A stretch of DNA of 64,000 nt from Minisyncoccota bacterium. Lineage in GTDB: Bacteria > Patescibacteriota > Minisyncoccia > Phycocordibacterales > UBA1550. The notes under the pieces are model-generated. The model saw nothing but the letters and a program-made list of their open reading frames with translations, searched no databases and was not told the origin of the DNA. A program made the translations under genes and the position numbers. The stretch covers positions 176 through 64,175 of the forward strand of contig JBAZWZ010000004.1 of the NCBI GenBank assembly GCA_041660105.1, in the 5' to 3' direction. This document shows positions 24,379-62,181 of the stretch, piece after piece (positions within the stretch are counted from its first letter, which is position 1; every line of letters begins with the position of its first letter).

Positions 24379-24380
24379 AA

Positions 24381-24617: not shown

Positions 24618-24620
24618 AAT

Positions 24621-25277: not shown

Positions 25278-25288
25278 TATGAGAAATA

Positions 25289-33772: not shown

Positions 33773-33797
33773 AATTTTTTAATTTAATCAACAAACT

Positions 33798-36700: not shown

Positions 36701-37604
36701 TTTCTGCCCAAAAATGATCTGGAGTAGCACCACCCTGCGTAACCACCAAATCATCAAAGTAATCAAAGTGTCCCGTCCCCCAACCCCACGGACGGTCATA
36801 TACTTGCATTTGGTAATTGTCTGACACAGGAAGGGCGCCGACGTTTAATTCTGCTTGCTGCGTATCGTTTATTAAATATGTCAACAATCCTGTTGCTGGG
36901 TCATAGGTGAGGGATTCATCAAACCAAGTGTTCCATATTGCGGGAATAATATTACTAATATGTACTCCGCAATAAATACCATTTTGCCAATTTAATCCAT
37001 CATCAAGAAAAAAGCCATAACGAGAGCAGTATGTTCCGTTGTATCCGCTGTAGGAGTTGTTGGCATAATCAACACCAAAATGTTTATCAGGAACTCCGTC
37101 ACCATTGGTGTCAAAAAAGAGCCTGAGGAAGCCATTATAAAATTGGTTTCCAGCGTGCTGCATTGTACGACGACTGACAGTGATTGGATGCGTACCATTT
37201 ACTGGTATCCAGCGCGAAGCGAGGATACCTCCGTTGTCCGTGACGTCTGTACTTACATTCATTTCTCCATTTTGTTCTACGACTCCGTAACCGCTTGTTG
37301 TCCATTTGGTTGGATCAATAGTATTGTCATCAAAATCATCTGAGAAAATTGTATCTACAGAAAGAGAAGTTGAATTCAAAGAAAGCGACGAAAGTCGCAT
37401 TAGTGGGGCAAAAAATGAGGTGACTGCTGACTGAACAGTAGTCGGAGAGTCAGAAGGAGAAGTTGAGGAGGTCTCAACAAACTGCATTGTTGAGGTAGCG
37501 TCAATAGGAGCACTTGATGTTGCCGTTTCCGGCATAATAACCTGCGCAAATGAAACCTGCGGAAATACTAGTAGTAACCCGAGGAGCAAAATAACTTTTT
37601 TCAT
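33798..37604 (-). CDS. Giant (1268 aa) secreted multidomain surface protein: Ser/Thr-rich linker, lectin/LamG-like region, possible lysozyme-like region, Ig-like (Big/CHB_HEX_C-like) domain, HYR-like domain, TSP3-like Ca-binding DxDGDG motif
   Basis: Signal peptide MKKVILLLGLLLVFPQVSFA. A possible lysozyme-like region carries ESD...GISQV. An Ig-like domain carries YSLDNGVTWNTY...YYSVDYFGNTE. HYR-like domain TAPTIFASD...ITAHDMAGN. Calcium-binding motif DPDGDGVPNQDD. Confidence 0.75.
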   Translation of the reverse strand: MKKVILLLGLLLVFPQVSFAQVIMPETATSSAPIDATSTMQFVETSSTSPSDSPTTVQSAVTSFFAPLMRLSSLSLNSTSLSVDTIFSDDFDDNTIDPTKWTTSGYGVVEQNGEMNVSTDVTDNGGILASRWIPVNGTHPITVSRRTMQHAGNQFYNGFLRLFFDTNGDGVPDKHFGVDYANNSYSGYNGTYCSRYGFFLDDGLNWQNGIYCGVHISNIIPAIWNTWFDESLTYDPATGLLTYLINDTQQAELNVGALPVSDNYQMQVYDRPWGWGTGHFDYFDDLVVTQGGATPDHFWAEISNESGAMKMYELPNTTSTELKQLPSGWAVEVKSTKKDGSNAETIEGGIAYRWYQVRDATDGTTGWMKAGVIDNATGNFIDGQEYLKYEASMQTELENTASQIYGTKEDRANLISDAVNHYYINASATPSLSSSDNLGKEGANNISLLRLADFPKQLILAIFANESDIVDFDNENVARDFGHGISQVTTTHYPAQPENDYDKRGVASGIDVPACSLDNLNYLDCYTDSDKNIPHSYKTASDGYLYKFYTNTKQSIFSNVKDGMKVLRDKFNIYYNNPYVAQNETWTGKLDENNITYKITKPEMEQILGVRGYNGFGPDPYYDENGNKVCRRLNNQSQPYYLAQVANKLETIKTIFPNSDTYSNPDNFIEKLKLASQEKETISICSPGTLEIVDSEGRSSGLNTTGVKNDVPNVYYDQKSGKQAEVYFPNGTESYKVSGTEEGLYSFYVDGAVSNIFSAINIPLKLGEIYTYKVDSDALSRGERGVTVLVDENGDGTPEQTIQVGNNFSDTVAPMTTSVISGSLGVDYWYTSPTSVALTAVDNIDGVGVEKTMYSLDNGVTWNTYSTSTPLVIATEGTSTLKYYSVDYFGNTEATSTLDFKIDTTAPTIFASDTSVEQLTSSGTLLTIPVTVNDSIDPNSTFTTDKPLTQTFAPGVTNILITAHDMAGNIATSSIAVTVYSSPTADPDGDGVPNQDDVKPFDTTVFANLTIPDEYSLWEKDSFNLPFSVAGRGNVSLNLSNTYYRVGNSPVKDSNEATVPATVATTNGVITISFPQSTKELKTYTLTLTTTKGNTKERESIKHKRDHESDNERRNELEKELKFANAEITLSITNTVANKTTSQTSTVNIYDKQQTAQLQYKYKDTAHSTTLLLKSDDVLKLKKGQPLELTVKVTGIKKDVPFTTNISGNFTMLNVVQEEEHSDGDDRKQTKFSLFFPQGTTAAQENIIITTTVNGITQTDVVEVRFGE

Positions 37605-37887: not shown

Positions 37888-37917
37888 CAAAAAGCCCCGC
37901 TTTCGCGGGGGTTTTTG
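37888..37917. terminator. Bidirectional rho-independent terminator after the Wzy_C/TPR gene
   Basis: AAAAAGCCCCGC-TTTC-GCGGGGGTTTTTG. Confidence 0.65.
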
Positions 37918-38034: not shown

Positions 38035-40113
38035 TTACACCTTAGGAGCTGGGTATTCCTTCAAAATTTTTACCGTTTCTGCATGCTTCCCATTTAACTC
38101 CAATACCTGCAAGTAGAATTTCTTTGCTTCAGGATACTCTGGGGCCAATTCAAATGCACGCTTGAATATCTCTTCTGCTTTTGCGGTATTCTTATTACCA
38201 TAATGAGCATTTCCAAGCTCAAAAAGAATTGATTGCTTCGTAGGTGAAAGTTCCGCTGCTTTATTCAAGTAAACGAGCGACTCATCATACTTTCCTACTT
38301 TTGAAAGGAACGAGCCGGCGAAAAGCTGTGCACGTGCATCAGAGGGGTGCTCAGCCGCTTGTTTTTCAAGTTCACTTTTTGTAAGGAGGAGGAACTGTTG
38401 CTGGATGTCTGATATTCCTTTTGATGAATCAAACGCAGTAGTTGAGAAAGGAGTAAGCTGCTCACGAATCTCGGTCTCCCCCATCGAGTCGTAGGCAAGC
38501 GCATCTTTGAAGAAGGCGAGGTTACGGGCAAGTGATGGATCCGTACGATCGGTCAAACCTTTTATAAATGTAATGTTCTGCATAAACGGACTGTAGTTCA
38601 CGTTATAGAGAAGAACGATTGCAAAAATGAAAGCTCCACCAGAAACCATAAACGTAAGGTCTTCTTTTTCTGCTGCATCCTTTTTAATATTTTTTGATTT
38701 ATTCTCTGCGTTTCTGTCAGTTGTCTGCGAAGCAGTGTCAGTTGTCAGTTGTCCCCTGTTCATTCCCTCAACATACGCAAGTATCATTCCGAAGTAAATA
38801 AGACTCGTGATGTTGTCAAACACAAAAAGATTCTGGAAAAAGTAGCCGCCCAGAAGCCCAGTAAGTACGCTTTTTTCTAAGACACTCAGCTCATCCGTGC
38901 GCCCCGTTAGAGACGGAGCCACGCTGCGACCACTCGCGGTCTCTAACGGGGCAGGTCTCCAAATGTAATAAAGAGACAATCCAAAGAGCGATAAATATCC
39001 GAGCAGCCCGAGCGCACCTCCCGCAACAAGCCAATCAAAGACTACGTTGTGCGCGCGGTCAAACCATTGCTCCTGCGCGTACATATTTGGATCATAGTAC
39101 TTACTGAAAACATACATAAAGTTATCCATTCCCCACCCAAGAATAGGTTTTTCCTTGAACCCTTCATACGCCATACCCCACACCATGAGGCGTGCGTGAC
39201 CTGTGCCTTCTGTTGGAGAGATAGCAGCGAGGCGTGAAAGCACGGGGCTTTGCTGTATGAACGATGCATCGCGAATAGCGATAAATCCACCGACAAAAAG
39301 AATTATCGCAATCACAATACCGATTGCACTTTTTCTAATCAACTTATTATTTTTCTCAAAAATGGCGACAAGAAGTGTAGCGAGACCAAGCCCAGCAATG
39401 AGCCCAAGGATCGCTCCACGCGTACCTGAGTGATATAGCGCAAACGTCTGAAGGATAATTATTAAACCATAGATTACCATACGTATATTCCCACCCGTAG
39501 TGTCTAGCTTTTCACGCACTAAAAGAAACAAAGCAATAAAAATATTAAAGAGCGCGTAGGTACCAAGATACTCAGTGTTACCAAGTGTACCATCAATACG
39601 AATGCCTCCTTGGGAAATTTTGACGTGGCCAGCCCATTGCATCACTCCGATGATTGCCATAATGACTCCCGCAAAAAGATTGAAATTCAAATAAGGTCGC
39701 CAAAATCCGCGCACGGTGAGCACTGTTGATGCCACCACAAAATAAGCGAATAGATGAAAGTAGGTGACCACTCCTTCCATACGCTCGTAGTTGGACCAGA
39801 AACTTTTTGCGGGATCTGCTCCAAAAATAGATGCAAGGGTGATGATACCAACAAATGCTGCAAAAGCGTAAAGAAGATAACTTTTCTTTGGACGATATGC
39901 AGGATCAATTACCGCAAGGACAATCCATGCTGAAAACATTATTTCGACAAGAGCGCGAAACGCAAAATTCTTACCTGTAATAAATGGGAAAAACGTACTC
40001 TGTCCAAGAACAATAAACGGAATAAATGGCACCGCCACGAACCCCGCAAAAACAACCGCATTGGCAAAAAATTTATGTAAATTCATCCCGTTAGAAGTAG
40101 GAAATGCGAACAT
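38035..40113 (-). CDS. O-antigen-ligase-like (Wzy_C) polytopic membrane protein with C-terminal TPR repeats; candidate O-oligosaccharyltransferase
   Basis: More than 10 TM helices with a Wzy_C-like core, then C-terminal TPR units (AKAEEIFKRAFELAPEYPEAKKFYLQVLEL). The true start is probably MNLHKFF (~40086), from comparison with the homologous PMM leader. Confidence 0.75.
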   Translation of the reverse strand: MFAFPTSNGMNLHKFFANAVVFAGFVAVPFIPFIVLGQSTFFPFITGKNFAFRALVEIMFSAWIVLAVIDPAYRPKKSYLLYAFAAFVGIITLASIFGADPAKSFWSNYERMEGVVTYFHLFAYFVVASTVLTVRGFWRPYLNFNLFAGVIMAIIGVMQWAGHVKISQGGIRIDGTLGNTEYLGTYALFNIFIALFLLVREKLDTTGGNIRMVIYGLIIILQTFALYHSGTRGAILGLIAGLGLATLLVAIFEKNNKLIRKSAIGIVIAIILFVGGFIAIRDASFIQQSPVLSRLAAISPTEGTGHARLMVWGMAYEGFKEKPILGWGMDNFMYVFSKYYDPNMYAQEQWFDRAHNVVFDWLVAGGALGLLGYLSLFGLSLYYIWRPAPLETASGRSVAPSLTGRTDELSVLEKSVLTGLLGGYFFQNLFVFDNITSLIYFGMILAYVEGMNRGQLTTDTASQTTDRNAENKSKNIKKDAAEKEDLTFMVSGGAFIFAIVLLYNVNYSPFMQNITFIKGLTDRTDPSLARNLAFFKDALAYDSMGETEIREQLTPFSTTAFDSSKGISDIQQQFLLLTKSELEKQAAEHPSDARAQLFAGSFLSKVGKYDESLVYLNKAAELSPTKQSILFELGNAHYGNKNTAKAEEIFKRAFELAPEYPEAKKFYLQVLELNGKHAETVKILKEYPAPKV
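38901..38950. repeat. 13-bp inverted repeat CCCCGTTAGAGAC...GTCTCTAACGGGG (28-nt spacer) inserted in-frame inside the Wzy_C/TPR CDS
   Basis: Shares the core with the CCCGTTAGAGGT elements at 40082..40210 and 41081..41208. Encodes the loop peptide APLETASGRSVAPSLTG. Confidence 0.5.
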
Positions 40114-40355: not shown

Positions 40356-41084
40356 TTAAGAACTTAGCTCACCAATGAACAAACAGACTGCATCCTCACA
40401 CTCTTTGGGAGTGTCTATAGAATATGTAGGGATTACACCTACCACACTATGATCATTCCCTCCCTCAAACAGCGCATCGCCGACATAAACACATTCATCA
40501 CTTCGCCACCCCATCTGATCTATAAAATATTTCACATTGTCGCCTTTATTGCGCGCAGTGAAATCAACACACGTGGTGCCACCAATACGTGCCTGCACGC
40601 CGAGATTCTTCAACTGAGAAATTTCTGGTTCAAAACGACAGAGAAGACCCTTCCGAATCCCCCTATCTTGATCTGCTTTCTCTTTTTCTTCAAGTGGTGC
40701 GTTGTGCCCAATCAATGAATACGATATCTGACACTTTCTGTCTTCAACCAAGTCTTTTAGATTACTAATTTCGAGACCAGCGTGATCAATCATTTTATCA
40801 ACAAGCCTAAAAATCTCATTTTTCTGAATTTCCGTTAGCTCATTACGCCAAATGATTTCACCTGATTGCGCTTCTGCATGATTTCCGTTTTGCGCCATTA
40901 TCACAACTTCTTTTGCAATTTCCCCAATCTGTTTTATTATTTGATCTTTTGTGGCACCAGACACAACGACCACATCACCACCATTTTCTTTGAGACCCAG
41001 CAAACATGCAACCATCGAATCACTTATTTCACTACGCGAGCGAGTAAGTGTCCCATCCATATCAAAAAAGAAATGTTTTTTCAT
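40356..41084 (-). CDS. Eukaryote/archaeal-type phosphomannomutase (HAD-IIB PMM family)
   Basis: FDMDGTLT HAD motif I, GGNDHS (cf. eukaryotic PMM GGNDHE), 242 aa, and end-to-end colinearity with eukaryotic PMM2-type enzymes. Confidence 0.75.
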   Translation of the reverse strand: MKKHFFFDMDGTLTRSRSEISDSMVACLLGLKENGGDVVVVSGATKDQIIKQIGEIAKEVVIMAQNGNHAEAQSGEIIWRNELTEIQKNEIFRLVDKMIDHAGLEISNLKDLVEDRKCQISYSLIGHNAPLEEKEKADQDRGIRKGLLCRFEPEISQLKNLGVQARIGGTTCVDFTARNKGDNVKYFIDQMGWRSDECVYVGDALFEGGNDHSVVGVIPTYSIDTPKECEDAVCLFIGELSS

Positions 41085-41208
41085 CCCGTTAGAGGTAGGA
41101 AACGCTGCGCGTTTCCGTAATTAGTTAATAATTAGTAAGACTTCGACACATCACTTTATAATACCCGCAAGTCCAGAATATAACTGTATGACCTCTAACG
41201 GGATTCAT
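41081..41208. repeat. Inverted-repeat element E2 filling the whole manC-PMM intergenic space; termini TTCATCCCGTTAGAGGT / ACCTCTAACGGGATTCAT; the left end abuts the PMM start codon
   Basis: The left ~60 nt is homologous to E1, with a covarying hairpin GGAAACGC-GCA-GCGTTTCC. The 14-bp termini are perfectly complementary. Confidence 0.55.
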
Positions 41209-41212
41209 TGTT

Positions 41213-42670
41213 TTAGTTTCTTCCATGTTTATCTTCGTAACGCACGATGTCATCCTCTCCGAGATACATACCGCTCTGTACTTCAATAATCTCGAGAATT
41301 TCATTCGTTGGATTTTCAAGACGGTGCACGGTTTCAACAGGGATATCTACCGTTTGATGAGCACTATAAAGAAGTGTGTTTTCGCCGACGGTCGCCTTTG
41401 CGGTACCTTGTATCACGACCCAGTGCTCAGAACGTTTGTGGTGGAGCTGGAGGCTCAGCTGCTCGTGCGGGCTCACCATAATCTTTTTCACCTTATACCC
41501 AAGGCCTTCTTCAAGTACCGTATATGAGCCCCAGGGACGAATCACCGTCTTGTGTTCCTTGTATTGCATCTTGTTGCGCTCCTTGAGCTCTGCGTACGCA
41601 TTTTTAATTTTGTGCGTCTCATCCTTGTGAACCACGAGGACTGCGTCTTCTGTATCCACCACAACGATTCCTGTTATGCCAATAGCGACTGTTGCTCGTT
41701 TTGAATTGCCATATACGAGAGAATTTTCACAATCAATCGTGAGTGCGTGTTCATTGAGAACATTGCCACACTCATCTTTTTCGAGGAGCTCATAGAGTGA
41801 CTTCCACGAACCGATATCCTTCCATCCAAAATCAACTTTAATAACTTCCACTTCCCTACTTCTCTCAAGGAGACCGACATCGATAGACACAGGAGACAAC
41901 ACCGAGAAATGTTCGATAAACTTTTCAGCATCTGCATCTCTGAGAGACACCGCGTGAGCAACTTCGGGTAAATATTTTTGAATTTCTTCATTAAACGTTT
42001 TCGCACTCCACACAAAAATTCCCGCGTTCCAAAGATACCCCTCTTTGATATACTTTTCAGCAATGTCACGTGGTGGCTTCTCAACGAAACATTCGACTGG
42101 TGTGGGGACGTTATCAATCATTTCTCCCACTGGCTTGATGTAGCCATACTCAGTGCTAGGACTATCTGGCGTGATACCAAGCGTAATAAGCTTTCCTTCT
42201 TTTGCGCGCGTAAATGCATCAATCACGCTTTTCTTAAAAGCACTGTCATCTGTGATCAAATGATCCGCGGGGGAAACGAGCATCAAAGCATCCTTGTCCT
42301 TCCTCTCAATAACATCTGCGGCGAGCGCGAGTGCTGGGGCAGTATTCTTTTGTGCAGGCTCAATAATGAGCTGTTCACGAGTAAAACCGTAATCCTTGAG
42401 TTGTAGCAAGATGTCAGTTGAAAATTGCTTGTTCGTGACAATGTAAATATTTTCTTTGGGGACTATATTCTCTATGCGCAAAAAAGTAGCTTGAATAAGA
42501 GTCTTATCCCCTGTGAGTGCGAGAAGTTGCTTCGGGTACAGCTCACGACTAATAGGCCAGAGTCGTGTACCTGATCCACCTGCGAGAATTACAGCGTAAT
42601 GATGATTATTTGATTGCTCCTTCATACTATTTCTAACTTTGTTGTTTTCATCGTACCACAGTTTAGGCAC
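41213..42670 (-). CDS. manC: Bifunctional mannose-1-phosphate guanylyltransferase / mannose-6-phosphate isomerase (type II PMI-GMP)
   Basis: [14 protein letters not shown] nucleotidyltransferase motif and a C-terminal cupin PMI domain. The track start is GTG, so the likely real start is the [12 protein letters not shown] about 45 nt downstream. Confidence 0.9.
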
Positions 42671-42714
42671 AAAACGCTACCAAATCAAGCAAGAATAGTG
42701 TAATATTCTTTTAT

Positions 42715-43797
42715 ATGAAAAAAGCACTTATCACGGGAATTACAGGACAAGATGGTTCATACCTCGCAGAACTTCTCCTTGAAAAAGGGTATGAGGTTCA
42801 CGGTATTATCCGTCGCGCAAGCAGTTTTAATACCGGAAGAATCGATCATATTTATCAGGACCCACATGAGTCAGGAAAGCGCCTTTTCCTTCATTATGGA
42901 GACCTCACCGACTCGACAAACCTCATAAGAATTATTAAAGAAGTTCGACCAGACGAAATCTATAATCTCGCAGCACAAAGCCACGTGAAGGTATCTTTTG
43001 AAGTTCCTGAGTACACCGGCAATTCTGACGCACTTGGGACGCTCCGCATCCTTGAGGCAATTCGCCTCCTTGGACTCGAAAAGATAACAAAGTTTTATCA
43101 AGCATCTACCTCAGAAATGTTTGGTGCTACTCCACCTCCCCAAAGTGAGGAGACACCATTCTATCCTCGCAGTCCTTATGGTGCTGCAAAAGTTTATGCA
43201 TACTGGATAACAAAAAATTATCGCGAGGCGTACGGAATGTTTGCGGTTTCTGGAATTCTTTTTAATCACGAGTCCCCTCGTCGAGGCGAAACCTTTGTTA
43301 CCAAGAAAATTACCCGCGCAGCAACAAGAATCTCAGTTGGTCTCCAAGAGAAATTATTTCTTGGTAACCTCAATGCAAAGCGAGACTGGGGGCACGCAAA
43401 AGATTATGTGAACGCAATGTATCTTATGCTTCAAGCAGAAACACCTGAGGACTTTGTTATTGCAACAGGTGAACAGTACTCTGTGCGCATCTTTTGTGAA
43501 GCAGTCTTCAAAGAACTCGGCGTTGAAATCGTTTGGCAAGGTGTGGGGCTAGATGAAAAGGGTGTCGACAAAAAAACTGGCAAAGTAATTATTGAAATCG
43601 ACCCTCGCTATTTCCGCCCTACTGAGGTTGAATCACTTCAGGGTGACCCAACAAAGGCGCAAGAAAAACTCGGCTGGAAAGCAGGGGTAACCTTCGATGA
43701 ACTCGTAAAGGAAATGGTTGCAACCGATCTAAAAGATGCGCAAAAGGATGTACTTCTTAATAAGAGTGGCTTTGTTATTGAAAAGCACTATGAGTAA
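42715..43797 (+). CDS. gmd: GDP-mannose 4,6-dehydratase
   Basis: [17 protein letters not shown] Rossmann motif, YxxxK, 360 aa. Confidence 0.95.
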
Positions 43798-43819
43798 TTA
43801 GGGGATTTACGACACCACT

Positions 43820-44269
43820 ATGGAATATATCCCGGATGAACTCTACAAAGAAATACTCAACGTTATGCCTTTTGTTTGTGTTGATATGGTGATTAAAAAA
43901 GGAGATTCATTTCTTCTCGCCAAACGAACGAACAAACCCGCACAAGGACAATGGTTCTTCCCTGGCGGAAGAGTTTTGAAAAACGAAAAACTCGAGGACG
44001 CTGTACACCGTAAACTCAAACAGGAAACGGGGCTCACGGGCAAAATTGAAAAAACTCTCGGAGTGGGCGAAACAATGTTTCCTGATGGCCCCTACGGGGA
44101 CTCCATCCACTCAGTAAATGTTGTATTTCTAGTGACTCCCAGAAACCTCGGTGAAATTATTCTTGATACTCAAAACAATGAGTATCAGTGGTATACTCAC
44201 ATTGATGACTCGTGGCATCCCTACGTGAAAAAGTTCCTTGGGTTAGCAGGTTTTACCAAAGTTGATTAA
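43820..44269 (+). CDS. gmm: GDP-mannose mannosyl hydrolase-like NUDIX protein
   Basis: Nudix fold (GGRVLKNEKLEDAVHRKLKQETG) positioned between gmd and fcl, as in colanic-acid-type loci. Confidence 0.75.
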   Translation: MEYIPDELYKEILNVMPFVCVDMVIKKGDSFLLAKRTNKPAQGQWFFPGGRVLKNEKLEDAVHRKLKQETGLTGKIEKTLGVGETMFPDGPYGDSIHSVNVVFLVTPRNLGEIILDTQNNEYQWYTHIDDSWHPYVKKFLGLAGFTKVD

Positions 44270-44280
44270 TTTGCAATATT

Positions 44281-45210
44281 ATGGAAAAGAACTCTAAAAT
44301 TTTTATCGCAGGACATCGCGGACTCGTGGGAGCTGCTATTGTAAGCGCTCTTCAAAATGAGGGATTTTCTAATCTCGTCCTTAAGACTCACGCGGAGCTC
44401 GACCTAACCAACCAGCAGGCAGTTGCTGATTTCTTTGCGCAAGAAAAGCCTGAGTATGTATTTCTTGCAGCAGCAAAAGTAGGTGGCATTATGGCAAACA
44501 AGAACTATCCCGCTGACTTCATCTACAACAATCTCACCATTGAGACAAATGTTATTCATAATGCATATGTAAACAAAGTAAAGAAGTTACTTTTCCTCGG
44601 GAGCTCGTGCATCTACCCCAGAATGTGTCAGCAACCAATCAAAGAAGAATATCTTCTTACGAGCGAGCTCGAACCAACCAATAAAGCGTATGCGCTTGCC
44701 AAAATCGCTGGTATTATAATGTGCCAGTCGTATAACGAACAGCATGGAACAAACTTCATTTCCTTAATGCCTACTAACCTCTACGGACCGCACGACAACT
44801 TTGATCTTGATAATTCTCACGTAATGCCTGCGATGATCCGTAAATTTCACGAGGCAAAAATTTCCAACGCGCCGCAAATTAGTATGTGGGGTACCGGTGT
44901 TGCAATGCGCGAGTTTCTCCATGTTGATGACCTCGCCAATGCAAGCATATTTTTGATGAATAACTACGACGACTCTTCTATTGTCAACGTAGGAACTGGT
45001 GAAGATGTAACGATCAAAGAGCTCGCGGAAAAAATTAAGGAAATTGTCGGATATGAAGGTGAGATTGTTTGGGACAGCACAAAACCCGACGGCACGCCCC
45101 GCAAGCTCCTCGACGTAACAAAACTTCACGCTACAGGTTGGAAACACACAATCCCCCTCAATGAAGGCATCTCGTCAACATACGCGTGGTTCAAGGAGAA
45201 TTATAAATAA
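44281..45210 (+). CDS. fcl: GDP-L-fucose synthase (GDP-4-keto-6-deoxymannose 3,5-epimerase/4-reductase)
   Basis: IFIAGHRGLVGAAI N-terminus, SxxxYxxxK, 309 aa. Confidence 0.9.
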   Translation: MEKNSKIFIAGHRGLVGAAIVSALQNEGFSNLVLKTHAELDLTNQQAVADFFAQEKPEYVFLAAAKVGGIMANKNYPADFIYNNLTIETNVIHNAYVNKVKKLLFLGSSCIYPRMCQQPIKEEYLLTSELEPTNKAYALAKIAGIIMCQSYNEQHGTNFISLMPTNLYGPHDNFDLDNSHVMPAMIRKFHEAKISNAPQISMWGTGVAMREFLHVDDLANASIFLMNNYDDSSIVNVGTGEDVTIKELAEKIKEIVGYEGEIVWDSTKPDGTPRKLLDVTKLHATGWKHTIPLNEGISSTYAWFKENYK

Positions 45211-45214
45211 CCAC

Positions 45215-45913
45215 ATGATTCCAAAAATCATCCATTACTGTTGGTTTGGCAAGAGTCCAAAATCCCCCGAGATTCTTGATTGTATTGAAAGCTGGAAGAA
45301 AACCTGTCCAGTTTTTGAGATTAAAGAATGGAACGAGTCCAATTTCAATATCCAGGACTTCCCTTTTACTAAGCGAATGTATGATGAAAAAAAATGGGCG
45401 TTTGTAGCTGATTATGCACGTCTTCATATTCTTTTTGAAGAAGGTGGTTTCTACCTCGATACTGACATGCTCTTACTCCAGTCTCTAGAGCCTCTCACAC
45501 ACCACGCGTGCGTTCTTGGTGAAGAATCCGTTGGTGTAATAAGTGCTGGGATGATTGGAGCCACAGCGCATCACCCGTTTATTGAGCAATGCAAGAAATA
45601 CTATGACGAAGGCACCGGAGAGATCGCAACTATCCCTCGTGTTCTTTCTCAAGTCTTCGAAACTTACTCCGACAAATCAAATATTGTCGTTTATCCACCA
45701 AAAACTTTCTACCCATTCGACAGCGAACATATATCCGATTATCATGGACAAGACCTTGGGCGCGAAGTAACTGGTGTCCACCTCTGGCATTACTCGTGGG
45801 GACATCCACTCAATAAGTTTTTTAAAAAGCTTGGTGTTTATCGTGTTGGGAAAAAAGTAGTTGAAGTTCTCGGTATCAAGAAGTTTCTTAAAAAAATATT
45901 TGGTTTTATTTAA
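45215..45913 (+). CDS. Glycosyltransferase with DXD sugar-binding motif (Gly_transf_sug / Och1-like family)
   Basis: IPKIIHYCWFG...YLDTDM motifs. Start moved to the ATG at 45215, just after the fcl stop. Confidence 0.7.
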   Translation: MIPKIIHYCWFGKSPKSPEILDCIESWKKTCPVFEIKEWNESNFNIQDFPFTKRMYDEKKWAFVADYARLHILFEEGGFYLDTDMLLLQSLEPLTHHACVLGEESVGVISAGMIGATAHHPFIEQCKKYYDEGTGEIATIPRVLSQVFETYSDKSNIVVYPPKTFYPFDSEHISDYHGQDLGREVTGVHLWHYSWGHPLNKFFKKLGVYRVGKKVVEVLGIKKFLKKIFGFI

Positions 45914-45923
45914 CCCGCTTAAT

Positions 45924-46709
45924 ATGAAATTTAGTATTATTACACCAACATATAAACGCGCAGACAAACTTACTCGAGCTGTTGAGTCGGTTCTTAATCA
46001 AACTTACACAAACTGGGAAATGATTATTGTGAATGATTCTCCTGATGATGTCAGCTATTCATCATTTGAAAATTCTATTTCCGATCCACGTATTATTTAT
46101 TTAAACAACGAACAAAATTCAGGGGTAAACTATTCTCGCAATCGTGCTCTTGATAATATCTCAAAAGATTCTGATTGGGTAATCTTTCTCGACGATGATG
46201 ATTATTTTGCCACCGACGCACTTACCACGCTCCACGACCTCATACAAAATCACCTCAACAATAAGTGGTTTGTTACCAACCGCGCTCAGTCTAATGGCTC
46301 GTCGCTGACCCACTTCCCCGCTTCCGACACATCCTATCCTTATGCATGGGATTACCTCATTACCAAAAAATGTAAAGGTGACGCAACACACTGTATCTCT
46401 ACTTCACTCATAAAAAACATTCGTTTTTCAAAACATATTAAACAAGCGGAGGAATGGCTGTTTTTCTATCAAATCGGTTTACGTGAACAAATGTTTTACC
46501 ACAACCACAACAGCACACTGACCGATGGCTACAACGAATCCTCGGGCCTCAATTTCCGCAAACGCACAGCACCTGAGCAGCTCAAAACTCTCTTTGCGAT
46601 CAAACTTGAAGGATTTCGCCATAATTTAATCTGGCGTCCCACGTTCCTTATTTATCTATCTCTGAGATTTGTTCGCATTGGCGTCAAAAGTTTAAGTTTT
46701 AAGCCCTAA
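45924..46709 (+). CDS. Family-2 glycosyltransferase
   Basis: FSIITPTYKRADKL...IIVNDSPDD...FLDDDD GT-A motifs. Start moved to the ATG at 45924. Confidence 0.8.
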   Translation: MKFSIITPTYKRADKLTRAVESVLNQTYTNWEMIIVNDSPDDVSYSSFENSISDPRIIYLNNEQNSGVNYSRNRALDNISKDSDWVIFLDDDDYFATDALTTLHDLIQNHLNNKWFVTNRAQSNGSSLTHFPASDTSYPYAWDYLITKKCKGDATHCISTSLIKNIRFSKHIKQAEEWLFFYQIGLREQMFYHNHNSTLTDGYNESSGLNFRKRTAPEQLKTLFAIKLEGFRHNLIWRPTFLIYLSLRFVRIGVKSLSFKP

Positions 46710-47553
46710 TCCAACTATTTGGGCACAAATCATCATCATTTTTCAAAAAAGAGTTTCTCCAATCATTTGGACATATAATAATTGCTTCTTTGTGCTGATT
46801 AAGCATCGCCGCCCACCAAGAAAAAGATGAGTTTGCTATAATCGCATTTTTGCACTGTGCCATCAAAACAAGCTCCTCGTAATCCTTCAACCCGAGATCT
46901 GAGACATACACAACCCTACCACCAAGAAAACCAAGATTTTGTTTTGCCCATGAAACATCATCGGTGAAGACAAAATATTTCACATTCTTAAGTTTCTTTA
47001 AAACTATGTCATTCGCTCTTTCGTAATAAGAAATGTCGAGCACGCTTAGATCAGGGCCTGCATTTACATAATCGCCTCTTCGTATATGCAATGCAACTGA
47101 CTCAATATTTGAGAGCTCTTTTACTGCGTTATTAAACACGGAAGATGTGTCATCCTGTAAAGTGACTTCTTTCCTTAAATCCTCTATGCAAGGCTCTACA
47201 TAATGAAAGCTCTGCCAATATCCCTCTAGGTATGCCGAATCTACATCCTCCATTGAAGCAAGAAAATCCGACTCGTAGGAAATGTGATACTTTTTAAAAA
47301 CAAACTTATTGAGGGCTTTTTTAATTAAGTAAGTAAAAGTACCCTTGGTTTTCGCTATCTCATTATTATCCGCGATATTTACATCAATCTTAAATTTCTT
47401 CAAGAGAAGAGTTCTTGGAGTAACATTTTGCTGGTTATCAAATGAGGAAATATCATATTTGACCTCCTTGTTATATTCTTTTTCAATAGTCCTTCCAATT
47501 GCATACTGAAAAAGTTGGTTTCCAAGGCCTCCTTGTAATTTAATTATTATCAT
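46699..47553 (-). CDS. GT11-family alpha-1,2-fucosyltransferase
   Basis: N-terminal GGLGNQLFQYA motif, diagnostic of alpha-1,2-fucosyltransferases (FutC/WbgL-like); 284 aa. Confidence 0.85.
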   Translation of the reverse strand: MIIIKLQGGLGNQLFQYAIGRTIEKEYNKEVKYDISSFDNQQNVTPRTLLLKKFKIDVNIADNNEIAKTKGTFTYLIKKALNKFVFKKYHISYESDFLASMEDVDSAYLEGYWQSFHYVEPCIEDLRKEVTLQDDTSSVFNNAVKELSNIESVALHIRRGDYVNAGPDLSVLDISYYERANDIVLKKLKNVKYFVFTDDVSWAKQNLGFLGGRVVYVSDLGLKDYEELVLMAQCKNAIIANSSFSWWAAMLNQHKEAIIICPNDWRNSFLKNDDDLCPNSWIRA

Positions 47554-47559
47554 ATGAAA

Positions 47560-48309
47560 TTACTTTTTAACAAACCAGAAACAGCCGCAGCCGTAAATCT
47601 GTTTATCTGCAATTTCTTTTGTCGCGTCATATATCATACCAGTTTCTAAGGCATTATCTGGAATAAGCGAAAACTCTTTAAGAATGAGCTCTGGAAACAT
47701 TCCAATAACCATCTCATACGAGTATACACGATGTGCATTAAATTGAATTCTTGGAACACCCACAGGCACAACAAAAAGGAGATTACCACTCTTTGCAATA
47801 ACGCGAGAAAGTTCTTTAGCTGCAACCAAATCCCCTTCTGGGTCTATTTCGTCACCATAGCGACCAAGTCCCACATGCTCAACGGTATGCATACAAGAAA
47901 GAGAAGTTATTGAATCATTCTCAAAAGGCAAACTTAATAGATTCGCAGGTTTCGATATCAAATTCGATAAATTTAATTTAGCTGGTCGAAAATCATAAAA
48001 ACGAACTGTTTTAAATGCTGATACAATACCAGAAAAATACAAACTAGAAGAAATATCCACATGCTCCTTTGCGTCTATCTCTTTAACTTTTCGCGCAGCC
48101 CATGCAGTGTGATAAATATAATGAGTATCAAATCTTGTATAAGGTATATTTTCAAAAAGACACGGGAAAATGTCTAGAATAGAAATTTTAAACCTTTTTT
48201 GCTTATCTTTTGCCTTAAAAGAAACAAAGCTTCTAATGATGAGAGGAAGGAACAAGAATGATCTTATTGTAAAAACAAATCTTTTAACCCCGCGCAAGAA
48301 ATTAAACAT
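47560..48309 (-). CDS. Putative SAM-dependent methyltransferase (DUF268-like)
   Basis: Weak resemblance (SLSCMHTVEHVGLGRYGDEIDPEGDLVAAKELSRV) to the DUF268 putative methyltransferase family found in polysaccharide loci. Confidence 0.4.
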   Translation of the reverse strand: MFNFLRGVKRFVFTIRSFLFLPLIIRSFVSFKAKDKQKRFKISILDIFPCLFENIPYTRFDTHYIYHTAWAARKVKEIDAKEHVDISSSLYFSGIVSAFKTVRFYDFRPAKLNLSNLISKPANLLSLPFENDSITSLSCMHTVEHVGLGRYGDEIDPEGDLVAAKELSRVIAKSGNLLFVVPVGVPRIQFNAHRVYSYEMVIGMFPELILKEFSLIPDNALETGMIYDATKEIADKQIYGCGCFWFVKK

Positions 48310-48339
48310 ATCAAATTATATCAACAATAATTATCCGAT

Positions 48340-49275
48340 TTATTCTTTTGCTGGTTGTCCTTTAATAAACAACTCGGCTTGCTTTTGGTTTTCTGGGTGG
48401 ACAAAAAGTAGATTATCATATCGATAGCTTTCCTTATATTCATGCTTTTGCAAATATCCATCATTATCTATTTCATATCCAATATATCCATATTTTTTTA
48501 GGATTTCAATCGATTCCGTACAGTTTTTTGCCCACTCTTCATCTCCTCCCATCTCCAAAGTAACCAGAGGTTTAATATCTGTAAGGATATGCTGCATTGA
48601 TTGCAATATGAGATGTTCGGCCCCCTCTGCGTCTATTTTAATAAAGGTTGGTGAAACACCTTTATCTCTACAATAAGTATCGAGCGAAATCGCCTTGACC
48701 TTGATGCGATTAGCATCATCTAAAAACTTCATCTCTTCACTTGTTCGTGCTTTAAATGTGTTGAAAGCACTATACTTTGGTCCATAATCCACGAATTCTA
48801 TTTCAGTCTCCTTGTTTAGGACAGCATTATTATTTACCGTAATATTGCTTTTTTTTGATGCGTTTTCCTTTAGACTCTCAAATGTGCGCGGTGTTGGCTC
48901 AAAGCTATGCACCTGACCACTAGATTCAACAAGAGTGCTTGCAAGAATAGAGTAATAACCTACATGAGCTCCAACATCAAAAAATACATCTCCTTTTCTA
49001 AGGAAATTAATTAAAAAATTGGTAAGGTTTGCCTCCAGGAAACCATAGTAATAAATAGCGCTCCCCTCTGGCAAGTAAAACCTCATTGTATCTCCCCAGA
49101 GTGTCTTGTGGGTCACCTTAAAGGGGTGCAGATACGCAAAGCTTTGCAATATATAAAATGGGATTGTTCGTATTGGGTCTTTCAAAAGCCTCCTCATTCT
49201 ATGAGGCTGCAGCTTATAGAGCTCATATCTCTTGAGAACCATTTTTTTTAGATCTGCTCGTTGTTTTTCGTCCAT
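48340..49275 (-). CDS. FkbM-family methyltransferase
   Basis: FFDVGAHVGYYS...FEPTP...IKIDAEGAE motifs of Methyltransf_21/FkbM. Confidence 0.8.
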   Translation of the reverse strand: MDEKQRADLKKMVLKRYELYKLQPHRMRRLLKDPIRTIPFYILQSFAYLHPFKVTHKTLWGDTMRFYLPEGSAIYYYGFLEANLTNFLINFLRKGDVFFDVGAHVGYYSILASTLVESSGQVHSFEPTPRTFESLKENASKKSNITVNNNAVLNKETEIEFVDYGPKYSAFNTFKARTSEEMKFLDDANRIKVKAISLDTYCRDKGVSPTFIKIDAEGAEHLILQSMQHILTDIKPLVTLEMGGDEEWAKNCTESIEILKKYGYIGYEIDNDGYLQKHEYKESYRYDNLLFVHPENQKQAELFIKGQPAKE

Positions 49276-49407
49276 TTTTTTATTATATTAGTTTTAAGAA
49301 TAATAGCATATTTCTTTATATTTATATAATGCAACATATTGCGAATTTATCGTAAACTACGTTGAGGTGTATACTGATAAATATCGCTAATTATAAATTA
49401 GGGGTCC

Positions 49408-50094
49408 TTGGCGCAAACAATTATGAAATTAACTACATTTGACGAATTCCGTGCACAATTTCGTGATTTTTATCATTCTGTAAAAACGGGACACGAAAAT
49501 ACAAAAAAACAGTCTCATGGCGGTCACGGTATTGACCATGATATCACCGTAGCAATGATTGCTGTAAAAATATCTGACGACGAACGTATCGGACAAAAAG
49601 CTTGGTGCGCCGCTATGCTTCACTCTGTAGACCGCGTAGTGGGAGCATCCGACATCAAAGACACAATGATGAAGCACGCCGAGTACCTGAAACACTTCTT
49701 TAGTCAAAATGAGATAGACGAAATAATTGAAGCTGCATTTCGCCATTCCGAACGAAACCAGATAGATCAGAGCGAAACTCAAATTACATTAATGGACGCA
49801 GACAGACTTGCAAATATGCAGTCTGCAGTAATTATACGTTCTGGGCAATTTAGACCCGATATACCAGTTTTTGATTTTAAATATCTCTCGGGTGCGATAG
49901 ACCCCCTATCAACTTACGAAGATCCAAAAAGTGTAATTGATGATCTACGATTATGCATAATAAATTATATTCCACAGCTGAGAAATAAAGAAGCAAAGCA
50001 TCTTGGTAATATATACGCAGAGAAACTTAATGCCTATATTAGATCGATTGAGGACGAAAATGAGTATTTTGGCCTAACAAATATTGAGATATAA
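49408..50094 (+). CDS. HD-domain phosphohydrolase
   Basis: H...HD (GHGIDHDITVAM) ... H ... D (LMDADRLANM) metal-ligand pattern. Confidence 0.6.
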   Translation: MAQTIMKLTTFDEFRAQFRDFYHSVKTGHENTKKQSHGGHGIDHDITVAMIAVKISDDERIGQKAWCAAMLHSVDRVVGASDIKDTMMKHAEYLKHFFSQNEIDEIIEAAFRHSERNQIDQSETQITLMDADRLANMQSAVIIRSGQFRPDIPVFDFKYLSGAIDPLSTYEDPKSVIDDLRLCIINYIPQLRNKEAKHLGNIYAEKLNAYIRSIEDENEYFGLTNIEI

Positions 50095-50115
50095 AATAGC
50101 AACCTCAAAAGTATC

Positions 50116-50634
50116 GTGATTAAAGAAATTCTCGCATTTTTCATAAAATTTATCAATCCACATAAACCGCTTGGAACGGCGTTGTTTAATGCAGTTGCAA
50201 GAGTTAGCATATCTGTTGCTTTTGAAGCAGTAGCTTTGCGTAAAAACCCTATAAATGGCGAAACTGAAATCTACCTAATAATGCGAGTAAATGATTCTTC
50301 TTTCCCAGGACAATGGCATGTTCCTGGATCAATCTTAAGACCGAAAGAAGACGACGAGCATGTCTTTGCTCGTCTTGGTAATAAAGAATTTGGAGCAAAA
50401 ATTGTTAAATCAAAATTTATTGCAATAGTATCCTTTCCAGAAGAACCTCGTGGTCATATTATCTCTTTGGTATACAGCGTAGAACTAGACAAAGAACCTA
50501 CAGGTGGTGGCAAATGGTTCCCTGTTGACAAATTACCAACCAATTTGGTTCTCTATCATAAAGAATATATTATTCCTGTCGCAATTAATGAAGAGAATTT
50601 TGAAAGTGTTAGTATTAGAATATCAGGGATCTAA
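50116..50634 (+). CDS. Possible degenerate NUDIX-fold protein
   Basis: Weak Nudix-box-like segment GSILRPKEDDEHVFARLGNKEFGAKI. Low confidence. Confidence 0.35.
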   Translation: MIKEILAFFIKFINPHKPLGTALFNAVARVSISVAFEAVALRKNPINGETEIYLIMRVNDSSFPGQWHVPGSILRPKEDDEHVFARLGNKEFGAKIVKSKFIAIVSFPEEPRGHIISLVYSVELDKEPTGGGKWFPVDKLPTNLVLYHKEYIIPVAINEENFESVSIRISGI

Positions 50635-50674
50635 ATCAACCTCATAGCATAGTACGTAATAATATTTCAAGCGA

Positions 50675-51607
50675 CTATTTTGACATGTTGTCTATTTTAC
50701 TTATCTCGCTCTCTATCCCCTTCAGTGAGGAATATTCTGGTACATATCCAATCGTTCCAGCTTTTTTGTTTTTTGAATAATACACATTCTTTGATACTCC
50801 CGTAATGGGTTTCGGTATTTTGTTAATAACATATTTTAGTCCGTATTTTTTCTCTAAAAAAGAAAGGAGGGTGAGTTTTGAGATAGGAGCCTTGCTATAC
50901 ACATCAAAGAAATCATTTATCTTACCTTTCTTCATAACCTTCTTGATTAGAGAAAGTAGGTCTTTTGGAGTGATGTAATCTCTAACAATATTATTGTCAT
51001 CCGTTTTGAAAACTTTTTTGCTTTTCAGACAATCAACGATTTCCGAAATCATAAAATTTGGACTAACATCATAAAAACGGCTAAAAAATGCAAATACTCG
51101 CAAGTCAACAATATTTAGATTCGACAGCGACCTGTGCTTCGCTTCTGAATTCAATTTTGCAATGGCATACGATTCAGAAACATCAATGTTGTTGATATCC
51201 AAAACTGACTTCGTCTTACTACTTATTGATTTGTGGAAATTATCGCCATACACCGCTCCACTACTCATATTGATATATAGTGCTTTTGGATTTTTCAAAA
51301 GATACCTAATAACCATACTGTCGACTTCCTCAGTAGCACTAAAGACCTCTGATGGGTTCTGTTTCAAACTATTGAGACTTTTTATGCCAGTGCAGTTTAT
51401 AATCACATCGTAATTATATTTGTTAAATTCCCCGATTTCACAGATTTGAAAATTTATGTCTTTGGGATATTTTTTTACGATGGTGTGAACCTTACTTTTT
51501 GTTCGAGAAAACAAGAACAACTGAGACTTATCCTTTTCATCAAAAAACTCCCGGAGGAGTGACCTCCCGATATATCCCGTCGCTCCAAGTAAGGCTATTT
51601 TTTTCAT
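50675..51607 (-). CDS. NAD-dependent epimerase/dehydratase (extended SDR) family protein
   Basis: N-terminal LLGATGYIGRSL Rossmann motif; 310 aa. Confidence 0.75.
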   Translation of the reverse strand: MKKIALLGATGYIGRSLLREFFDEKDKSQLFLFSRTKSKVHTIVKKYPKDINFQICEIGEFNKYNYDVIINCTGIKSLNSLKQNPSEVFSATEEVDSMVIRYLLKNPKALYINMSSGAVYGDNFHKSISSKTKSVLDINNIDVSESYAIAKLNSEAKHRSLSNLNIVDLRVFAFFSRFYDVSPNFMISEIVDCLKSKKVFKTDDNNIVRDYITPKDLLSLIKKVMKKGKINDFFDVYSKAPISKLTLLSFLEKKYGLKYVINKIPKPITGVSKNVYYSKNKKAGTIGYVPEYSSLKGIESEISKIDNMSK

Positions 51608-51621
51608 AGTACAGGCAAAAA

Positions 51622-52254
51622 TTAATGTGTTTTTATGAAATCCAAAATTTCATTATACTCGCTTGCAAGCAAATCAGGATTTTCAACCTTAAGAACCTTT
51701 TCACTATGGAAACCCCAGGTTACAGCAATAGTAAGTATATTTGAATTTACCATCCTGGCTTCCTTAATATCACCCGTCGTATCAGTAATGAAAAAGACTT
51801 CCCCCCCTTTTTTATCCTTAAGTGTACTTTGGAAAAACAGGTTTTTGGGTTGGGAATTTTGTCCGATAATTTTGGTAAAATAATCCACTAACCCATAAGA
51901 TTCTAGAATATTTATAATCAATTCTCTTGGGGAGGAACTGACAATCCATAACTCTCCAAGATCTCTTGCTTTTACTACTAATTCTTTGGAAAAGCTAAAA
52001 AGCTTAACCTCCTGCGTGCGGTAATAACTAGGAAAAAGATCTGCTTTGATTTCAATGAGCCGTCGTTTTTCTTCTTCATTTAAATTCAGTAATATCGCTA
52101 GACGCTGGTTAATGTGTCCACCAAAACAAGACAGATATTCATCCATCGTCAATGTTTTATTGATTTGCGAGACAGCTTCCTTGTTCATTTTGAAAACCGT
52201 GTTAACAGAATCTGCCAACACTCCATCAAAATCAAAAATGATTACTTTGCTCAT
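51622..52254 (-). CDS. HAD-superfamily phosphatase
   Basis: IIFDFDGVLADS motif I; C-terminal D-containing motif. Confidence 0.75.
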   Translation of the reverse strand: MSKVIIFDFDGVLADSVNTVFKMNKEAVSQINKTLTMDEYLSCFGGHINQRLAILLNLNEEEKRRLIEIKADLFPSYYRTQEVKLFSFSKELVVKARDLGELWIVSSSPRELIINILESYGLVDYFTKIIGQNSQPKNLFFQSTLKDKKGGEVFFITDTTGDIKEARMVNSNILTIAVTWGFHSEKVLKVENPDLLASEYNEILDFIKTH

Positions 52255-52263
52255 GGGTAAGGT

Positions 52264-52797: not shown

Positions 52798-52846
52798 ATT
52801 TTAATATATTTATATTGTATGTTAATTCATCAGAATCTATTAGCGT

Positions 52847-54649: not shown

Positions 54650-54659
54650 AAATTATTAT

Positions 54660-56208: not shown

Positions 56209-56305
56209 AAAATACTTTTTATATGTTGCAACTATACAAAAAATGATGGGTCAAGTCAAATACATGTATTAGTTCACTACACCATTATAAATCACGAATT
56301 TTATA

Positions 56306-57076: not shown

Positions 57077-57081
57077 ATTAT

Positions 57082-57351: not shown

Positions 57352-57369
57352 AATGAGTTAGTAAAAACT

Positions 57370-58458: not shown

Positions 58459-58560
58459 ACAAAAATAGGTAGAGTGACACGTATTTATTGCCTATTCTTC
58501 AAAAAAGGATTATACTTTCTCTATTATTATTGATAGTAACATAAAAAACCCAGTAAGAAC

Positions 58561-59784: not shown

Positions 59785-59809
59785 TAGTGCTTAAAGTGTT
59801 TTCAAAAAA

Positions 59810-61236: not shown

Positions 61237-61239
61237 TTT

Positions 61240-62163: not shown

Positions 62164-62181
62164 TTTAAAAACTAATTAAAA

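Follow-up and report, generated by a model that had tools for sequence, protein, structure and literature searches.

A probable surface-glycan locus with a family-level GDP-L-fucose route and a GT11 fucosyltransferase in a Paceibacteria bacterium

Surface glycans are thought to govern how the ultra-small bacteria of the Candidate Phyla Radiation (CPR) attach to partner cells and evade phages, and the glycobiology of these organisms is essentially uncharacterised. What would such a cell build with the genes for GDP-L-fucose and a fucosyltransferase to spend it on? The question is posed by a 64,000-nucleotide stretch of contig JBAZWZ010000004.1 (positions 176 to 64,175; hereafter the window, whose own numbering is used throughout). 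An earlier reading of its sequence, which we call the original prediction, had singled out positions 40356-49275 as holding a complete route from fructose-6-phosphate (Fru-6-P) to GDP-L-fucose, an alpha-1,2-fucosyltransferase of family GT11 and three methyltransferases, and had proposed that a bacterium of reduced genome invests them in a fucosylated, probably O-methylated surface glycan that mimics or binds a host. Profile, structural and gene-neighbourhood comparisons lead us to consider it quite probable that 40356-49275 is the GDP-L-fucose arm, together with part of the glycosyltransferase arm, of one surface-glycan locus of ~31 kb in a Paceibacteria bacterium.

Genes were identified by listing open reading frames (ORFs) and searching Pfam and NCBIfam profiles, with NCBIfam equivalog cutoffs as the standard, and all ten genes of the interval were found in their predicted positions. 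On the minus strand lie a HAD-IIB phosphohexomutase of the eukaryote-type phosphomannomutase (PMM)/alpha-phosphoglucomutase family (40356-41084; PF03332 PMM, 25.7 bits against a cutoff of 22.4; TIGR01484, 63 bits) and ManC, the bifunctional mannose-6-phosphate isomerase/mannose-1-phosphate guanylyltransferase (41213-42670, called start 42625; TIGR01479, 501.9 bits against 373), with its NTP_transferase, ManC beta-helix and MannoseP_isomer domains. On the plus strand follow Gmd, GDP-mannose 4,6-dehydratase (42715-43797; TIGR01472, 598.1 bits against 415), a Gmm-like Nudix hydrolase (43820-44269) whose best NCBIfam family is NF011963 (GDP-mannose mannosyl hydrolase), and Fcl, GDP-L-fucose synthase (44281-45210; NF047922, 503.4 bits against 500). 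ManC, Gmd and Fcl all exceed their equivalog cutoffs. The protein of 40356-41084 is, by its sequence, a HAD-type hexose-phosphate mutase: its 16 best PDB matches are, in 16 of 16 cases, HAD-type phosphomannomutases or the L. lactis alpha-phosphoglucomutase (4bnd), over the full length and with E-values of 5e-12 to 7e-7. Its specificity for mannose phosphates would follow from its position, because the gene adjoins manC and is kept there (74% identity) in L102, a close relative represented by a 784-kb metagenomic contig. A complete and co-located route from Fru-6-P to GDP-L-fucose, as originally predicted, is thus supported at the level of family assignment.

Directly after Fcl come a DXD-motif glycosyltransferase of Gly_transf_sug type (45215-45913, plus strand; PF04488, 55.3 bits; DTD motif in FYLDTDM) and a GT2 glycosyltransferase (45924-46709, plus strand; PF00535, 90.5 bits), both of whose longest ORFs overstate the genes; the starts given here, 45215 and 45924, are those called on an independent Logan contig (L001). 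The minus strand then holds the GT11 gene (46699-47553; PF01531, 111.8 bits against 23.9), a DUF268 gene (47560-48309; PF03269, 49 bits against 25) and an FkbM-family methyltransferase gene (48340-49275; TIGR01444, 99.3 bits against 37.7; PF05050, 70.3 bits against 22.7). Residues 4-282 of the GT11 protein align to positions 4-295 of the 298 in the PF01531 profile, which is to say over its full length. The original prediction had made the GT11 assignment hang on the HxRRxD region, and this is present as HIRRGD (H156-D161), alongside GGLGNQLFQYA (residues 8-18) and NSSFSWW (241-247). In a 30-sequence family alignment in which identity runs down to 38%, the columns that hold these three motifs are invariant or very nearly so. 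Because a search of the PDB with the GT11 sequence and one with a DUF268 alignment profile each returned no match, the folds of these two proteins were predicted. The AlphaFold model of the GT11 protein (predicted local distance difference test score, pLDDT, 90) finds as its top 26 PDB matches NodZ, POFUT1, AtFUT1 and FUT8, all GDP-fucose-dependent fucosyltransferases (E 1e-7 to 6e-5, template-modelling score about 0.5), and on this model the protein shares their GT-B-type fold. An identical protein is held at NCBI as “MAG: alpha-1,2-fucosyltransferase” (MAG, metagenome-assembled genome) from Candidatus Paceibacterota, on an 84,570-bp contig. The alpha-1,2 linkage itself is suggested by family membership. 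A Helicobacter pylori FutC sequence is 33% identical to the GT11 protein over its full length with the motifs in register, and we treat this as a lead rather than a test.

The interval of the original prediction, 40356-49275, is ~9 kb of a single ~31-kb surface-glycan locus that runs from 38035 to ~5.6 kb past the end of the window (equivalent to ~69.6 kb). The part beyond the window is seen on Logan contig L162, which is 100% identical to the window over 57081-64000 and carries three GT2 glycosyltransferases, a GT4, a GT10 fucosyltransferase and a short-chain dehydrogenase/reductase (SDR). Export functions are represented by a Wzx-type flippase (62182-63480, plus strand; PF01943, 96 bits; PF13440, 44.5 bits) and by a membrane protein of the O-antigen ligase/polymerase type, Wzy_C, with C-terminal TPR repeats (38035-40113, minus strand; PF04932, 66.7 bits, and several TPR families; hereafter Wzy_C-TPR), of which only the TPR part finds sequence matches in the PDB and no solved ligase is matched. 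A second fucosyltransferase, of the GT10 alpha-1,3/4 type, lies at 10456-11505 of L162, about 3.5-4.6 kb past the window end (FucT_N, 101.6 bits; GT10 domain, 71.8 bits); it bears the motif AFENSSRSGYTTEK (FENS...YTTEK type) and matches the H. pylori fucosyltransferase 2nzw at E 2.8e-44. The locus in all holds about eight glycosyltransferases (the DXD-motif enzyme, four GT2s, the GT4, GT11 and GT10), two fucosyltransferase families, three methyltransferases and two nucleotide-sugar pathways. Two of the three methyltransferases originally placed in the interval are indeed there (DUF268 and FkbM), and the third lies outside it, a Methyltransf_23 protein at 61240-62163.

The second nucleotide-sugar pathway is CDP-linked. 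It comprises an acetolactate-synthase-like thiamine diphosphate (ThDP) enzyme (52847-54649, minus strand; three TPP domains), which at 386 bits against the TIGR00118 cutoff of 538 is not a true acetolactate synthase and is a YerE-like candidate for sugar branching; a cupin-like protein and two glucose-1-phosphate cytidylyltransferase paralogues, RfbF (54660-57076, minus strand; TIGR02623, cutoff 300), scoring 391.7 bits for 56306-57076 and 249.7 bits for 55417-56208; CDP-glucose 4,6-dehydratase, RfbG (57370-58458, minus strand; TIGR02622, 477.9 bits against 278); and an E1/ColD-type sugar 3-dehydrase (58561-59784, plus strand) with the motif SFYGSH, in which His replaces the lysine that binds pyridoxal phosphate, 349 bits against the RfbH cutoff of 423, and a best PDB match to 3bcx (CDP-6-deoxy-L-threo-D-glycero-4-hexulose-3-dehydrase, E 2.6e-75) followed by ColD. 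An RmlC-like 3,5-epimerase, an SDR reductase and the Methyltransf_23 gene complete the plus-strand series (59810-62163). Profile searches further identified an SDR epimerase/reductase, a HAD phosphatase and a DJ-1/PfpI protein (50675-52797, minus strand), and a GT2 gene that is cut by the window end (63477-64000, plus strand) and continues on L162. An HD-domain protein and a second Nudix protein (49423-50634, plus strand; PF01966, 29 bits; PF00293, 25 bits) also lie within the locus, their membership of the glycan pathway being uncertain.

Whose locus is this? A genome scan with the Wzy_C-TPR protein found at least 575 relatives; the 80 that were kept (median identity 42%) are without exception MAGs of Patescibacteria (Yonathbacteria, Kaiserbacteria, Paceibacterota and others), many of them with record names that refer to groundwater or sediment. 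Synteny with SecA is seen in 45 of these 80 loci and synteny with MurB in 31. The rest of the window encodes housekeeping proteins (TypA, GatB, Obg, GAPDH, the C-terminal half of a split transketolase, SecA and MurB) typical of such genomes, and since, in addition, the exact proteins are assigned by NCBI to Candidatus Paceibacterota and the relatives are Patescibacteria, the premise of a reduced-genome host is sound. The original prediction had proposed a comparison of presence and absence across relatives. In 62 loci the sequence extends 5 kb or more on the island side, and 13 of these have gmd there (at 50% identity or more), 7 fcl, 4 GT11, and one each manC and DUF268. Directly beside Wzy_C-TPR, gmd and fcl occur in the Yonathbacteria locus L002 (87% and 76% identity) and in L009, L036, L070, L073 and L078. 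About a fifth of relatives have gmd-fcl next to the SecA-MurB-Wzy_C-TPR backbone, and fucose synthesis at this site is therefore native to Paceibacteria and recurs among them. A fully self-contained pathway, manC and the mutase included, is less common and is seen in the window and in L102. There the gene order is Wzy_C-TPR (73% identity), the PMM-like gene (74%), ManC (81%), Gmd (89%), the Nudix gene (64%) and Fcl (81%), followed directly by GT11 (36%), FkbM (29%) and DUF268 (57%), with the DXD-motif and GT2 glycosyltransferases absent. As a separate observation, a DegT-family gene adjoins gmd and an fcl-like gene in L009, L025, L070 and L002, some of which may make GDP-perosamine or GDP-colitose-type sugars instead of, or besides, fucose. 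Patescibacteria have been reported to carry genes for dTDP-rhamnose and other nucleotide sugars, with gmd, rmd and manA also borne by phages (PMC9166423, PMC12911398), and our literature searches for CPR fucosyltransferases, Parcubacteria O-antigen and Parcubacteria GDP-mannose returned nothing specific.

The new element here is the linkage between DUF268 and GT11. The DUF268 gene stops 6 nt ahead of the GT11 start, and an identical protein is held at NCBI as “DUF268 domain-containing protein” on the same 84,570-bp Candidatus Paceibacterota contig. Its model (pLDDT 87) has a class I methyltransferase fold preceded by a long N-terminal hydrophobic helix, and the top 50 listed PDB matches are almost all S-adenosylmethionine (SAM) methyltransferases (E down to 9e-9), among them the sugar O-methyltransferases RebM and AtmM; a tblastn search of plasmids with the protein found no match. 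For a test of linkage, 80 metagenomic loci were found by similarity to DUF268 (52-100% identity), and their six-frame ORFs were scanned with hidden Markov models built from the retrieved homologues. A GT11 gene starts on the same strand within 3.5 kb downstream of DUF268 in 27 of the 36 loci with at least 3.5 kb of downstream sequence, at distances of -97 to +2104 nt, and lies upstream in only 3 of 39. The background is much lower, GT11 being found in 5 of 80 Wzy-anchored Paceibacteria loci (1.24 Mb), four of them without DUF268. The dependence is one-way: DUF268 needs GT11 and GT11 does not need DUF268, which is how a tailoring enzyme working after the fucosyltransferase step should behave. 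DUF268 is also far better conserved than GT11, its top 120 clusters being 64-82% identical where GT11 has fallen to 40% by about rank 40.

Other genes travel with this pair. In 8 of 47 loci DUF268 and GT11 are separated by an FkbM gene; in 13 of 33 metagenomic loci the next gene after GT11, on its own strand, is homologous to the GT2 of the window, and the enzyme of 45924-46709 is a possible maker of the GT11 acceptor; and GT10 homologues (53-60% identity) adjoin DUF268-GT11 pairs in three DUF268 loci (L095, L106 and L150). A tblastn search of plasmids with the FkbM protein found only generic “FkbM family” matches of 25-33% identity, mostly in rhizobia, and did not confirm a kinship to NoeI, the Nod-factor fucose 2-O-methyltransferase. 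The same-strand arrangement in 27 of 36 loci suggests that DUF268 is a fucoside-linked O-methyltransferase, and is a strong clue that the family works with fucosyltransferases. The predicted fold and the tight linkage to GT11 genes together make the O-methylation of the original prediction plausible. More specifically, and only tentatively, we propose that DUF268 proteins are glycan O-methyltransferases acting on the GT11 product, for example to give a terminal O-methyl-fucose, and that DUF268-(FkbM)-GT11-(GT2) is a portable “methyl-fucose cap” cassette.

Taken together, the genes would work as follows. At the level of families, Fru-6-P would be converted to mannose-6-phosphate by the ManC isomerase, to mannose-1-phosphate by the HAD mutase, to GDP-mannose by the ManC guanylyltransferase, to GDP-4-keto-6-deoxy-mannose by Gmd and to GDP-L-fucose by Fcl, with the Nudix protein probably trimming the GDP-mannose pool. 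A parallel route from CDP-glucose would yield a 3,6-dideoxy-4-keto sugar, again at family level, and the ThDP enzyme could branch the CDP-linked sugar as YerE does in yersiniose synthesis (PMC9306805). About eight glycosyltransferases, working on the cytoplasmic side, would assemble a lipid-linked oligosaccharide, GT11 and GT10 would add fucose from GDP-fucose, and the membrane-anchored DUF268 protein and FkbM, in a conserved module with GT11, would O-methylate the fucosylated end. Wzx would then flip the unit, and the lineage-conserved Wzy_C-TPR protein would polymerise it or ligate it to its final acceptor.

Several points weigh against this scheme. Fcl clears the NF047922 cutoff by 3 bits only. 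The Nudix protein, at 70.3 bits against 146, falls under the NF011963 cutoff and is not a Gmm member by the curated test, so that of the original gmm call the best family stands and the membership does not; the name is a positional guess from its place between gmd and fcl, a place that the L102 orthologue shares. The HAD mutase clears the PF03332 cutoff by a slight margin, has an alpha-phosphoglucomutase among its PDB relatives, and could favour glucose phosphates. In DUF268 the canonical motif I of the SAM loop (E/D-x-G-x-G-x-G) is missing and H-V-D-I-S-S-S-L stands in its place, with D85, S87 and S88 invariant in 34 homologues where D-I-S-S-S replaces the glycine-rich loop; given this replacement, SAM binding is a prediction from the model. 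Because the DUF268 loci were all chosen for their resemblance to a single protein, and near-duplicates are among them, part of the linkage may be shared ancestry. Among the scanned ORFs of the window and L162 there was no initiating phosphoglycosyltransferase and no chain-length regulator, both of which may sit elsewhere in the genome. Linkage specificity, acceptor and methylation site, finally, are read from family and gene order.

One alternative is that the low-GC half of the locus has a foreign origin, whether as a chimera of assembly or binning or as a block lately acquired from a phage or by some other horizontal route, in which case the fucose pathway and the fucosyltransferases would be unconnected. 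The composition invites it: the backbone (1-33 kb) has a GC content of 0.45, the segment between Wzy_C-TPR and fcl one of 0.43, and the sequence beyond 45.2 kb one of 0.37, with third-position GC (GC3) as low as 0.23-0.27 in some genes, and GC climbs again on L162 from about 0.36 to 0.42-0.46 after the SDR past the last glycosyltransferase genes. Among the auxiliary genes of Patescibacteria phages are gmd, manA and rmd (PMC12911398), and a small GIY-YIG ORF (57082-57351) stands at a break in the Logan assembly. The original prediction had named such a break as a sign of chimerism, and the break is real, but it does not point to a chimera. The L001 contig (SRR18595301) is 100% identical to the window over 41174-57109, across the junction at ~45.2 kb, and a JGI contig is 100% identical over 47300-48997; L102 shows the same fcl-to-GT11 junction with the same fall in GC. 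Because independent assemblies span the junction and L102 repeats it, the chimera reading was rejected, and a phage island was rejected on the same synteny and assemblies. The Pfam scans showed no integrase, capsid or terminase. The named sources of GT11 and DUF268 homologues are all Patescibacteria lineages, apart from one labelled only “groundwater metagenome”, and most sources are unnamed. Low GC is, moreover, usual in variable polysaccharide loci, and a low-GC variable arm beside a conserved arm is the usual anatomy of O-antigen and capsule loci. The drop at ~45.2 kb is accordingly the boundary between a vertically inherited arm and a low-GC, fast-evolving, exchangeable one, and a foreign block seems to us very improbable. 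Exchange among related CPR genomes is likely, but is already part of the two-armed locus that we favour. On the analogy of O-antigen and capsule loci, a conserved arm joined to a swappable low-GC arm would mean that the glycan probably differs between strains.

What the glycan does, and what it is attached to, invite two further alternatives. The host-mimicking (Lewis- or H-antigen-like) or host-binding glycan of the original prediction, as in H. pylori, would draw on the fact that the two fucosyltransferase families with which H. pylori makes its Lewis antigens both occur in the locus, the GT10 match to 2nzw included, and on the generally episymbiotic habit of CPR bacteria (PMC11623550). We think it unsupported and unlikely: the record names of the relatives, groundwater and sediment, indicate no animal host, no enzymes forming N-acetyllactosamine (LacNAc) were identified, O-methylation would change Lewis and H epitopes, and the replacement of the glycosyltransferase arm from one close relative to another (GT11 36% identical in L102 as against 81% for Fcl) argues against a fixed, mimicked epitope; a hypervariable arm fits diversifying selection better. 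Rather more weight is due to protein O-glycosylation, a possibility that we hold to be doubtful but well short of negligible, in which a fucosylated lipid-linked oligosaccharide stays unpolymerised and Wzy_C-TPR, acting like PglL or PilO, moves it en bloc to pilins, S-layer or other surface proteins. Wzy_C-TPR is conserved in its at least 575 relatives and fixed in SecA-MurB synteny while the adjoining glycan genes vary, and this pattern fits a relaxed-specificity ligase or oligosaccharyltransferase better than a polymerase specific for one repeat unit; a relaxed-specificity ligase or O-oligosaccharyltransferase is thus a serious alternative to a polymerase for this protein. Its TPR domain could bind protein acceptors, the scanned ORFs hold no chain-length regulator, large variable surface proteins flank the locus (33798-37604, and a Lamin-tail (LTD)-PKD protein on L162), and pilin O-glycosylation is predicted in Saccharibacteria (PMC11623550). 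On the other hand, no protein acceptor was identified, the Wzy_C domain alone does not tell WaaL, PglL and Wzy apart (nor would the fold distinguish a ligase from a polymerase or an oligosaccharyltransferase), no solved ligase is matched by sequence, and a long repeat unit, too, could account for eight glycosyltransferases and two or three nucleotide-sugar pathways.

The fucosylated surface-glycan locus favoured here is of a kind already known, a Wzx-type fucosylated polysaccharide locus, an ordinary type of gene cluster whose genes are already annotated in NCBI. Its nearest parallels are the Wzx/Wzy loci for fucosylated O-antigen or capsule with the colanic-acid-type module gmd-fcl-gmm-manC-manB (E. 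coli O86 and O128, with GT11, are examples): the window has the same gmd, fcl, Nudix and manC genes, sets GT11 in the company of further glycosyltransferases, a Wzx flippase and a protein with a Wzy_C domain, and likewise has a variable region of lower GC than the backbone. It differs in its host, a monoderm-like CPR bacterium with a very small genome, and in its phosphomannomutase, which is of the eukaryote-type HAD-IIB family and not a ManB-type alpha-D-phosphohexomutase. Further differences are that the Wzy_C protein has TPR repeats and is a conserved lineage core gene beside secA-murB, that the scanned ORFs of the locus lack an initiating transferase and chain-length regulator, that two or three methyltransferases and a CDP-linked deoxysugar pathway are added, and that the locus takes up a large share of its genome. 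As H. pylori does with FutC (GT11) and FutA/FutB (GT10), the locus combines both families, its GT10 being a clear FucT homologue and its GT11 sharing HIRRGDY and IIANSxxSWWAA; unlike in H. pylori, where the genes are scattered, they are clustered here, GT11 is coupled to methyltransferases, and there is no sign of a LacNAc acceptor or an animal host. The DUF268 protein passes the family profile as the Golgi-type proteins of Caenorhabditis do, and like them has an N-terminal hydrophobic helix, but the bacterial match covers only positions 68-126 of the 176 in PF03269, in a bacterial family of about 250 aa that is 65-82% conserved within CPR.

The CDP-linked block finds its counterpart in the CDP-3,6-dideoxyhexose and yersiniose A pathway of Yersinia pseudotuberculosis (DdhA-C, YerE, YerF), with which it shares a glucose-1-phosphate cytidylyltransferase, a CDP-glucose 4,6-dehydratase, an E1-type 3-dehydrase, an acetolactate-synthase-like ThDP enzyme and SDR reductases. 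Unlike the Yersinia pathway, the locus shows no gene for the E3 reductase (DdhD); its 3-dehydrase has two cysteines only, so that it probably lacks an Fe-S cluster and is ColD-like in this respect, and it adds an RmlC-like epimerase, a cupin, a DJ-1 protein, a HAD protein and a methyltransferase. The whole block (52847-61236) resembles the YerE/YerF logic for a branched 3,6-dideoxyhexose, which would be unusual in a CPR genome.

Some further features of the window deserve mention. The Wzy_C-TPR gene is followed closely by a perfect GC-rich hairpin (37895-37910; CCCCGC-TTTC-GCGGGG) that has T-runs on either strand, is terminator-like and bidirectional, and marks the left edge of the locus; it was the sole notable feature of a promoter and terminator scan of 37.5-51 kb that otherwise did not rise above shuffled expectation, and scanning the window for tRNA genes and Rfam families gave no match. 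In the stretch that separates murB from the glycan locus (32930-37604, minus strand), a 1268-aa protein of low GC with only a weak SH3_3 match and a 280-aa ORF have no homologue in any of the 80 related loci and may be strain-specific surface proteins. At the other edge, directly after the low-GC glycan block, L162 encodes at 13382-14809 (minus strand) a protein of surface type that has Lamin-tail and PKD domains and is a candidate for bearing the glycan or for adhesion. The GIY-YIG ORF (89 aa, minus strand) separates rfbF from rfbG at the very point at which the Logan assembly divides into two contigs (L001 ends at 57109 and L162 starts at 57081), and the site may be a strain-variable or mobile insertion point. 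The split transketolase consists of an ORF (9385-10374) that matches only the C-terminal half of the model (positions 315-624) and an adjoining ORF (10361-11329) that is presumably the N-terminal half, both on the minus strand. A separate envelope set at 20086-27285 comprises a PgaC-like processive GT2 (20086-21372), a PAP2_C protein, an alpha/beta hydrolase, a GT4 (26086-27285) that resembles glycolipid-anchor synthases, and VTT/DedA-type proteins.

If this reading of the locus is right, the glycan would be fucosylated in two ways, methylated and furnished with a dideoxy or branched sugar, and if the genome were as large as the 784-kb contig of L102, the ~31 kb spent on it would amount to roughly 3-4% of the whole. 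Its conserved fucose arm joined to a swappable arm makes it a likely strain-level identity marker, in a group of bacteria whose glycosylation a study of the Saccharibacteria pilus calls “unexplored” (PMC11623550). The pairing of the DUF268 and FkbM methyltransferases with GT11 is testable, these being small soluble or single-helix proteins that could be expressed. In Caenorhabditis elegans, DUF268 genes sit in clusters with glycosyltransferase genes, and the fucose-modifying methyltransferase of that animal is still unidentified (PMC7614267); the DUF268-GT11 pairing could inform the search for nematode fucose methyltransferases. Were the O-methyltransferase reading true, a so far uncharacterised family, first defined by members from those C. 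elegans glycosylation gene clusters (PMC7614267), would gain a function.

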